A stretch of DNA of 64,000 nt from Escherichia coli (lineage in GTDB: Bacteria > Pseudomonadota > Gammaproteobacteria > Enterobacterales > Enterobacteriaceae), in the NCBI RefSeq assembly GCF_041886205.1, contig NZ_CP169029.1. One strand, written 5' to 3'. The notes under the pieces were generated by a model. The model did no database searches, was not told the origin of the DNA, and was given only the letters and a program-made list of their open reading frames with translations. The translations under genes and the position numbers were made by a program. How positions within the stretch are numbered: position 1 is the first letter of the stretch; the number at the start of each line of letters is the position of its first letter. Below are positions 25,332-27,896 of the stretch, in pieces.

Positions 25332-25389
25332 TCGCTGCCAACCTCCCGATGCGCTGTGAATAGCGGTTTACATCAACCACCTGCTTTCA

Positions 25390-27324
25390 TTACCCATTCA
25401 GAGATAAATTTATTACCCGGTAACCGATATACAGACCGTCATTGTTTACCCCACTCGTCAGACGATAGTCGTAAGTGCCGACGGCCGCTTTTTGCCCATT
25501 CTGCTGAATATCACGTTGGGCACTGCTGGAGAGGATTTGCCCATTTTTATCCTGCAATTGCAGATTGCCCGCATCGCCCAGAACTTCCGCACCTTGCGCA
25601 TCAACCAACTTAATGGTGCTGTTACCATCATCGACTTCAGTGAGCGATAACGCAGAGTCAATATCACGAGATACTGAGCTTACAACGTCACTGTCAGAAA
25701 CCTGAATCACACCCTCGCCGCGCAAATCCAGCGTTTTACTAACGTTGACCGTCCCTTCTGTCATCTGTGCACCTGCTGTCAGGGCACCAAAATCAACGGT
25801 TCCGCCGGAGAATCCCAAAGTGCTAATGGAGTGAGCGCCCTTACCCACTGTTACCAGGCTTCCCTGACCCGCAGTGATCCCGCCTCTCTGCAGAAACTCA
25901 GCATTCTTTTCCAGGTTAAATGTCGTGTTCTGGAACGCCAGTGAACCCTGGAACCAGTCTGTATAAGCAAACTCATCGAAGGAGAATTCGTGATTCCCCA
26001 TGTTTATTTCAACAATACCTCTACCTTGAAGATCGTTATCAAATACCCAATCTTTATTGGCATTGATTTGCAGTTTGCCATCAACATCCAGGTCCGCACG
26101 GCCGATGTTCTTGTCTTCAGAAATAACCGCGACAGCACCAGAAGCGACATCAATATATCCGCTGAATGCATAGTTATTGCCGGTCAGCGCCACTGTCCCA
26201 CTGTCGATACTTATTGTACCGTTGCCGGAAATCTTATTGGCAAAGGTCATGCTATCGTCAGCCTTCAGGTGTAATTTCCCGCGGTTGTTGATTTCTGCGG
26301 TACCTATATTTTGGGTGATCCCTAAAGCGCCATTTTGCTCAATTTTGACTTTACCACTAAAGGCAGAGTTATCACCGGTTAAGTAAGTCGTGCCATTGAG
26401 CGCATTGATATAGCCCAGGCCCTCGCTGCCACTGACAATATCCGCGGAAATAGTCGCGTCTTTATCCGTGTGGTTTAAGGTGATTTTCTTATCGGATGTC
26501 GAAGCCCACACAAACTCAATTTTTTCGGCATCAATAATCCCTGCCGCCTTCGCAGCACTTCCTTCCTGTGCACCTAACGCTAACTCAGAGTTGGTGCTTA
26601 AACTAATTTTCGGTGCGGATATTTTACCTCCATCTGATATGACTAATGTTGTATCAGAACGTTGGTCGTAATAACCCAGGCTAATATGTTCACGAGCATT
26701 AACTTCACCACCGTTATTAACCGACAGGAACTGATTACCGCCATATCCGCCGTAAACGCCCATAAAGAAGGTCCCTGCATTTACCTGACTACCTTCGCCG
26801 CTTACATTCCCCTGCGTATAAGTCAGACGACTGGTGCCCTTAACATGAATTTTGCCGCCATTGGAGACATTAAAATAGCCTTGATCATGTCTCATGCCTG
26901 AGTTTGACTCATACAAATCATCAGCATATAACTCGCTGCCAGCATTGGAGACATTCAGGAACCCCGTACCTTTCAGCAAAAAGTTAAGTGGGCCATTGAT
27001 AGTTACCTTTCCTCCGGTAATATCTAACCCACCACCAGAAGCGAGAGTCAGACGCGGACGGGAAGTATCTGTCGCATTGATTACCAGATTGGCATTGTCA
27101 GTCACCGTAATACGGTAATCGATGCTCTGGTTCTCTTTGCCAAAATCAATAGTTTTATCCTGGTTTACGATGACATCATCGGCGAATACCAGAGATGAAT
27201 ATAAACTTATCGCGCTAATTAAAACAGCCCGGGACTTTTTTCCTTTTACTCTGCTCCCCAGCTCCGAGCAGACGCTCCAACAGTTACGGGACCTGTTCCA
27301 CTTTAGCCGATATATTTTATTCAT
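25390..27324 (-). pseudogene. type Va autotransporter adhesin, passenger domain only (C-terminal beta-barrel missing)
   Basis: Extended signal peptide MNKIYRLKWNRSRNCWSVCSELGS...; Gly/Asn/Thr-rich passenger; ORF stops 58 nt from yahB stop with no translocator domain; start placed at ATG 27324. Confidence 0.7.
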
Positions 27325-27854
27325 CACAATCTCCAGCAATACATCCAAATAAAACCAAGATTGCATAAACAGCAACGCATTAAATGCCATTCTGGTTACT
27401 GTTCATCGCATATAAAAATTCAAAAATTTTGCATAGCATTGGCAACCACATATCTGAGTATGTAGTTCAGAGGGTAATAAAATAGCAAGTTATTACTTAA
27501 AACTTATTTTAAGTTAACACTCTTAACTTTATCATTACATTCCTCCCAGTCTCTAATACCTGCGCATTATATGTATCCAGGAACTCAAATCAACTCAAAA
27601 TATAAACAAAAGCAAGAGGAATACATTTAATATACAGCCGATAAAAGCGGTAACTCTTATTAGGTATCAAAATATAAGAATCGTCTTATTAATAAATATA
27701 TAACACTATAGGACTGAATCCATTCAGCTAATACAAAATAAAATCGCTAATTAATAAAATATAAAATCATGAAGTGATACAAGAGGAATTGCAGGATATG
27801 ACATGACAATCATATATAATATATGCATAATTTTTTACAGCGAGTCAATGATTC

Positions 27855-27886
27855 CCGCGCCATATGCAGACATGGCGCGGTTTTAT
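27855..27886 (+). terminator. intrinsic-terminator-like hairpin (CCGCGCCAT-loop-ATGGCGCGG followed by TTTTAT)
   Basis: 9-bp perfect stem and T-run on plus strand, 10 nt from the betT stop; preceded by AAAA so may act bidirectionally. Confidence 0.45.
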
Positions 27887-27896
27887 GCAATAACAA

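Follow-up and report, generated by a model that had tools for sequence, protein, structure and literature searches.

A truncated ehaA adhesin gene joined to the tail of pdeL by a 3,262-bp deletion in Escherichia coli

Introduction

Why does an autotransporter gene of Escherichia coli stop before the part that encodes its translocator? The question is raised by a 64,000-nt stretch of contig NZ_CP169029.1 (assembly GCF_041886205.1), referred to here as the window, in which the interval 25332-27896 lies between the stop codons of yahB and betT, both of which face it with their 3' ends. A preliminary description, made from the letters alone, noted in this interval an autotransporter open reading frame (ORF) without a beta-barrel, and proposed that a deletion had removed the 3' half of the gene together with yahA (pdeL). 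We compared the locus with complete genomes, draft assemblies and protein families. Sequence comparison identifies the truncated ORF as ehaA, the O-island 15 gene of E. coli O157:H7, and it is very probably a pseudogene remnant left by one 3,262-bp illegitimate-recombination deletion that fused ehaA to the tail of pdeL. Wells et al. 2008, cited in PMC8565820 and PMC9289746, describe EhaA (Z0402) as an autotransporter adhesin of O157:H7; cells that over-express it display it at their surface, aggregate, form biofilms and adhere to bovine rectal epithelial cells (PMC8565820; PMC9289746).

Results

A 3,262-bp deletion joins ehaA to the last codons of pdeL

We searched the interval and its flanks by megablast against 5,426 complete E. 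coli genomes, the set to which all counts of complete genomes in this text refer. Window 28000-25420 matched ehaA next to betT, and window 25422-25200 matched the 3' end of pdeL plus yahB. The best match was E. coli wlxctx60 (NZ_AP045833.1), with the order betT - ehaA (1,327 aa) - pdeL (362 aa) - yahB; its intact locus serves as the reference here, and its coordinates are given with the prefix L001. Aligned to this locus, the window shows a 3,262-bp gap flanked by 2,681 nt on the left and 1,123 nt on the right, both at 100% identity, a result that bears out the proposed deletion of the 3' half of the autotransporter gene, identifies the full-length relative as EhaA and maps both end points. 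The left and right blastn alignments overlap by 3 nt. The elements at the junction are as follows.

25423..27324, minus strand: ehaA 5' remnant, codons 1-634, with 100% DNA identity to ehaA of NZ_AP045833.1, encoding the signal peptide and the N-terminal passenger
25420..25422, minus strand: TAC microhomology at the deletion junction (L001 9579-9581 and 12841-12843 are both TAC), read as EhaA codon 635 (Tyr)
25373..25419, minus strand: pdeL (yahA) 3' remnant, 50 nt when the TAC is included (25373-25422; L001 12841-12890)
25390-25392, minus strand: new TAA stop of the fusion ORF, reached after nine out-of-frame codons (RVINLSLNG)

Missing from the window are EhaA residues 636-1327, the 141-nt spacer between ehaA and pdeL, and pdeL codons 1-346 of 362. 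The surviving piece of pdeL starts within codon 347 and ends with the native stop (25373-25375), that is, the last 16 codons and the stop, and tblastn of PdeL residues 347-362 matched window 25423-25376. The earlier proposal that yahA had been removed is therefore correct for codons 1-346 and incorrect for these 50 nt. Because 3,262 is not a multiple of three, the pdeL tail is read in the wrong frame: the fusion product follows EhaA through residue 635, continues with the nine foreign residues and terminates 15 nt short of the native pdeL stop, 58 nt from the end of yahB at 25331, the same distance that had been noted at the outset.

No insertion sequence (IS) element or long repeat was found at the junction, where the only homology is the 3-nt TAC. 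We considered and rejected an IS-mediated origin of the 3,262-bp event, as the junction lacks an IS and the IS1 in the window lies 10 kb away, in the thrW island. By our calculation, (k+1)(1/4)^k(3/4)^2, about 5% of random joins are expected to show at least 3 nt of junction homology. The TAC is therefore consistent with illegitimate recombination at a microhomology, whether by slippage or by end-joining, but is no proof of it.

The deletion removed the translocator of EhaA and both domains of PdeL

The 692 C-terminal residues that are missing here carry, in the full-length relative, the Pfam autochaperone model AC_1 (PF18883, residues 839-944, E = 1.6e-28) and the Autotransporter barrel model (PF03797, residues 1046-1305, E = 7e-47), together with a Pro-rich linker. 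The NCBIfam barrel model TIGR01414 matches residues 853-1327 of the full-length protein and has no match in the remnant. All matches of full-length EhaA to solved structures, namely the AIDA-I barrel (4mee), the IcsA autochaperone (3ml3/5ke1) and the BrkA barrel (3qq2), fall within residues 734-1327, in the lost part. Consistent with this, the 644-aa product contains no beta-barrel by Pfam or NCBIfam and no AC_1 autochaperone by Pfam. In PdeL of the intact relative, EAL phosphodiesterase models match residues 111-354; only codons 347-362 remain in the window, and neither the helix-turn-helix (HTH) nor the EAL domain is left.

We searched the whole 64-kb window for the missing DNA. EhaA residues 636-1327 were not found by tblastn in any of the six frames, and searches with the deleted 3,262 bases (blastn) and with PdeL (tblastn) returned only the 16-codon pdeL tail and chance matches. 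Because neither the barrel-coding nor the other deleted DNA occurs elsewhere in the window, a frameshift or a local rearrangement is excluded, and with it a barrel hidden in another frame, which the preliminary description had named as one finding that would refute its proposal.

The remnant retains the front end of a classical autotransporter

In the ORF list, the interval holds one long minus-strand ORF, 25390..27390 (-), of 666 aa when counted from an upstream in-frame ATG. Relatives are annotated from the MNKIYRLKWNRSRN start (MNKIYRLKW) at 27324, which has a GGAG 6 nt upstream; from this start, the remnant ORF spans 25390..27324 (-) and encodes the 644 aa estimated originally. Up to residue 635 the product does not differ from WP_077782530.1, annotated as 'autotransporter adhesin EhaA'. 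The extended signal peptide that had been recognized by eye corresponds to the ESPR domain (PF13018, residues 1-38, E = 1e-9), the sole Pfam match in the product, with cleavage likely after VFA at residue 49. Beyond this residue the passenger is composed of 13.3% G, 9.1% S, 8.2% N and 7.4% T, in agreement with its first characterization as Gly/Asn/Thr-rich. EhaA is an AIDA-I-type classical (type Va) autotransporter, and of the features of this class the remnant shows the signal peptide and a passenger and lacks the autochaperone and the barrel.

The allele is real, recent and absent from the complete genomes searched

None of the 5,426 complete genomes carries the junction; the best matches cover 92% of a junction-spanning query, with the remainder elsewhere in the record. 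The whole deleted segment is present in 1,391 of them and at least pdeL in 5,164, figures that speak against the short form being the normal form of the gene. In a public protein collection, the exact 644-aa product was found, under the name 'hypothetical protein [Escherichia coli]', on at least 36 contigs from independent assemblies, indexed in 49 blocks. Four loci that we fetched, from one Logan SRA assembly, two NCBI draft genomes and one ENA metagenome scaffold, match the window at 99.9-100% identity and share its junction and neighbouring genes. This recurrence in independent assemblies shows that the deletion is real and no artefact of assembly, and that it marks a lineage. The event is also recent, since the window differs from intact wlxctx60 over about 50 kb by only nine point differences and one further structural difference, at thrW.

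The small differences in these 50 kb consist of eight substitutions and a 1-nt insertion at window 17989, in the 8-nt spacer between yahI and yahJ. Among the related loci, yahG (AllG) is called as two pieces of 268 and 200 aa in Logan SRR24316105, a deletion carrier, and in the ENA metagenome scaffold (L004), and is whole (472 aa) in another deletion carrier (L002 12818-13935 versus L003 12818-13935); the split may be a sequencing error or point to another disruption in this lineage.

Flanking genes and the AT-rich upstream region

The deletion left both neighbours of the remnant intact. The surrounding features are listed here.

24399..25331, plus strand: yahB (LysR-type regulator), from the ORF list and the comparison with the intact relative; the intact downstream neighbour, convergent with the ehaA remnant
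25313..25354, no strand assigned: inverted repeat (hairpin) between the pdeL and yahB stops, overlapping the yahB stop
27325..27896, minus strand: betT-ehaA intergenic region, 572 nt, 31.1% GC, specific to O-island 15 from 27856 downward
27897..29930, minus strand: betT (choline transporter), from the ORF list and the comparison with the intact relative; the intact upstream neighbour of the ehaA remnant

The yahB sequence is unaffected by the deletion. The RNA of window 25310-25380 (-), 71 nt, folds with -27.9 kcal/mol, and the hairpin at 25313-25354 is probably a terminator common to the convergent pdeL and yahB genes that was spared by the deletion.

The 572-nt upstream region is one of two stretches in the 64 kb that fall below about 33% GC (500-nt windows); its part at 27391-27896 has 30.4% GC, against 50.7% for the whole window. 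The extreme AT-richness described earlier is thus plainly present, and the accompanying idea of a silenced promoter is drawn from base composition. A consensus scan found one good -35/-10 pair, TTGATT-16-TATAAT, at 27593->27566; promoter-like sites in the region are not enriched, with 5 found against 6.5 +/- 2.8 expected in shuffles. The ehaA promoter presumably lies within 27325..27896. Silencing of this region by H-NS is plausible from base composition alone; a literature search returned no paper showing H-NS control of ehaA. Such control has been shown for the unrelated K-12 pdeL promoter, where PdeL acts as an H-NS-antagonising autoregulator (bioRxiv 10.1101/2021.10.01.462762).

The remnant lies in what is left of O-island 15

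O-island 15 of strain EDL933 comprises 4,643 bp with ehaA (Z0402) as its sole ORF (PMC8565820), and ehaA-positive genomes carry 4,642 nt between the flanks that they share with K-12. In a K-12-type locus (L006), the sequence common to these genomes extends through betT to 40 nt past its stop (27857-27896), which places the boundary of K-12 homology at L001 7144, or window 27857; homology resumes no earlier than about 14 nt before the pdeL start. Between these points K-12 lacks ehaA and has instead an unrelated AT-rich segment of 820 nt that includes yahV (L006 1645-2464, versus L001 7145-11786). When the ehaA upstream region was compared with the K-12 betT-pdeL spacer by blastn (word size 7, E <= 1e-3), no homology was detected, and by this comparison the two AT-rich segments are unrelated. 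In the window only the left 2.43 kb of O-island 15 survive; as at the intact locus, they start 40 nt beyond the end of betT. The statement that the adhesin stands where K-12 has yahA needs correction on this point: ehaA sits between betT and yahA, and intact strains carry both side by side.

Two observations concern the ends of the island. In about a quarter of the complete genomes (1,391 of 5,426), pdeL lies 141 nt behind ehaA without the upstream region that holds the PdeL, Cra and H-NS sites in K-12; because O-island 15 replaces this regulatory segment, the regulation of pdeL in ehaA-positive strains may differ from the K-12 model. At the other end, window 27855-27880 forms a 9-bp GC-rich hairpin (CCGCGCCAT...ATGGCGCGG) just past the betT stop, which straddles the end of the 40 nt shared with K-12 at the left boundary of the island and is likely the betT terminator.

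Other losses in the betT-yahB interval

The lowest-ranked match in the search of the complete genomes with the deleted segment revealed a second allele. E. coli PS3Tanimalfeces2 (NZ_CP180597.1; L010 2522-4096) carries an independent 3,639-bp ehaA'-'pdeL deletion corresponding to L001 ~9156-12810, on a background 98.5% identical to that of the window, and is annotated with an incomplete 'ESPR-type extended signal peptide-containing protein' (pseudogene) abutting a pdeL fragment. This deletion lies between the copies of an imperfect 16-nt direct repeat, GGTAA(G/A)GGCG(C/T)TCAC, at ehaA codon ~494 and pdeL codon ~332. It is in frame, giving a 524-aa EhaA'-'PdeL fusion found on 12 contigs, and its right end lies 46 nt from that of the 3,262-bp deletion. 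Elsewhere, one complete genome has an IS1 in place of pdeL, about 260 of the 5,426 have no match to pdeL or to the 3' half of ehaA, and in Shigella sonnei lineage 3 a deletion of about 16 kb took yahBCD-pdeL-ehaA-betTIBA (PMC12795559). Loss in the betT-yahB interval thus recurs, through events that are few and rare, and selection for it is possible but unsupported.

A separate kind of shortened EhaA appears in two 507-aa proteins of the public collection (P0017 and P0027, on 19 and 26 contigs), which have different allele backgrounds and the same last residue (…STLGFSG). Their common end may mark a mutational hot spot or a shared contig break, such as an IS insertion would cause.

A second adhesin difference at thrW

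The other structural difference between the window and wlxctx60 is at window 34545-37456, beside the tRNA-Thr gene thrW. Here an AraC-type regulator gene (34545..35189) is cut short at its 3' end by an IS1 (~35186-35955), which also abuts two 'ABC-three component system' genes (36005..37205, 28-33% GC) that have a weak PADLOC match to an Aga REase-type model. At the same place wlxctx60 has 12.1 kb that include the inverse-autotransporter adhesin gene fdeC. Because this segment is replaced in the window, the strain, as far as the comparison of the two sequences goes, is without fdeC, a second adhesin, at thrW.

Discussion

Origin and expected consequences of the fusion

Together, these observations describe ordinary lineage-specific decay of a known adhesin gene, and no new mechanism is implied. 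In the sequence of events that we propose, a single 3,262-bp deletion joined at a 3-nt microhomology would have placed the final 50 nt of pdeL, out of frame, directly behind ehaA codon 635. In one step it would have taken from EhaA the C-terminal passenger, autochaperone, linker and 12-stranded beta-barrel, from PdeL the HTH and EAL domains, and from between the two genes their spacer. In the type Va pathway, the protein is exported by Sec, its barrel is inserted by the barrel assembly machinery (BAM) and the translocation and assembly module (TAM), and the passenger crosses its own barrel with the aid of the autochaperone. Should the AT-rich region drive transcription of the remnant, the ESPR signal peptide would direct the product into Sec export; lacking a barrel, this product could neither insert into nor cross the outer membrane and would, on the logic of this pathway, be degraded in the periplasm. 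The remnant is accordingly predicted to be non-functional, and the strain is expected to be functionally EhaA-negative, without EhaA-dependent aggregation, biofilm formation and adhesion. It is also PdeL-negative, without this cyclic di-GMP (c-di-GMP) phosphodiesterase and transcription factor. In K-12, PdeL makes c-di-GMP levels bimodal (a 'digital switch'), promotes escape from biofilms and, when expressed, protects against phage N4 (bioRxiv 10.1101/2021.10.01.462762); the corresponding phenotypes may be changed here.

Weighing the alternatives

Two points weigh against a simple non-functional remnant. Its ORF carries no further disabling mutations, which is expected for a recent deletion, yet leaves room for retention. 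The second, independent deletion (L010) has likewise spared the upstream region together with some 500 N-terminal codons, which could hint at something other than neutral decay. A functional shorter product, such as a periplasmic or released passenger fragment, would fit the 644 open codons with their Shine-Dalgarno sequence and signal peptide, the 100% conservation among carriers and the similar N-terminal fragment in a second lineage. However, the identity among carriers reflects recency and not constraint, the tail is made of out-of-frame codons, and classical autotransporters need their own barrel and autochaperone for passenger export and folding, both of which are lost with no translocator nearby in the 64-kb window; we regard this explanation as very improbable. 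We give practically no credence to a frameshift, an assembly or sequencing artefact, or an ancestral short form, in favour of which nothing was found. A frameshift would leave barrel-coding DNA downstream, and there is none there or anywhere in the window; an artefact would not recur with the same junction in independent assemblies from four sources; and a short form that ends in an out-of-frame fragment of the near-universal pdeL (5,164 of 5,426 genomes) must be derived. Window searches, independent assemblies and genome counts thus refute all three.

A further question is whether the deletion was adaptive, in that loss of pdeL raises or un-buffers c-di-GMP or loss of EhaA removes an antigen or aggregation factor, with the region as a recurrent target. 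The independent 3,639-bp deletion, on a different background and with a nearly coincident right end, points in this direction, as do the S. sonnei deletion covering the interval, the IS1 at the place of pdeL and the roughly 260 genomes without pdeL or the ehaA 3' half. Against it, both alleles are rare (0 and at least 1 of the 5,426 complete genomes), pdeL is kept in the great majority of genomes, the 16-nt repeat explains the 3,639-bp event mechanically, and two events do not suffice for a test. We therefore consider an adaptive origin unlikely, and it is a little more doubtful still that the betT-yahB interval is a recurrent loss target from which the translocator half and pdeL are removed while the AT-rich region and an N-terminal fragment are kept. 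If selection does drive these losses, some commensal or animal-associated E. coli repeatedly drop the PdeL switch and a surface adhesin in one step.

For the preferred explanation, a pseudogene left by one deletion, there are practical consequences. The ORF would be better labelled as an ehaA pseudogene fused to a pdeL remnant, and polymerase chain reaction or gene-presence screens aimed at the 5' part of ehaA would falsely call such strains EhaA-positive. The c-di-GMP network of this strain would also differ from that of the model strain, PdeL being absent.

Comparison with known systems

EhaA of O157:H7 occupies the same locus, between betT and pdeL. The 635 residues of the remnant are 96.9% identical to it, and the full-length allele of the nearest intact relative 98.3%; its upstream region is likewise 572-573 nt long and AT-rich, with 97.6% identity to that of the window. 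Unlike the O157:H7 gene, the locus described here retains codons 1-635 only, and the C-terminal passenger, autochaperone, Pro-rich linker and barrel are gone. K-12 PdeL (YahA) combines a LuxR-type HTH with an EAL domain and acts as both a c-di-GMP phosphodiesterase and a transcription factor. Of its gene, the window keeps the terminal 50 nt in the expected place, followed by the pdeL-yahB spacer and its hairpin, and lacks codons 1-346; the K-12 pdeL regulatory region is itself replaced by O-island 15 in ehaA-positive strains.

A close parallel is the PS3Tanimalfeces2 allele, in which the 3' half of ehaA and most of pdeL are lost as well, the N-terminal passenger and upstream region are kept and the right end also falls within the last 100 nt of pdeL. 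It differs from the present allele in being an independent event at a direct repeat, in frame and on another allele background. Shigella sonnei lineage 3 has also lost ehaA and pdeL by deletion, lineage-wide. That deletion is much larger, has an IS3-family element on one side and took the bet genes and yahBCD (PMC12795559), whereas the junction described here has no IS and its neighbours are intact.

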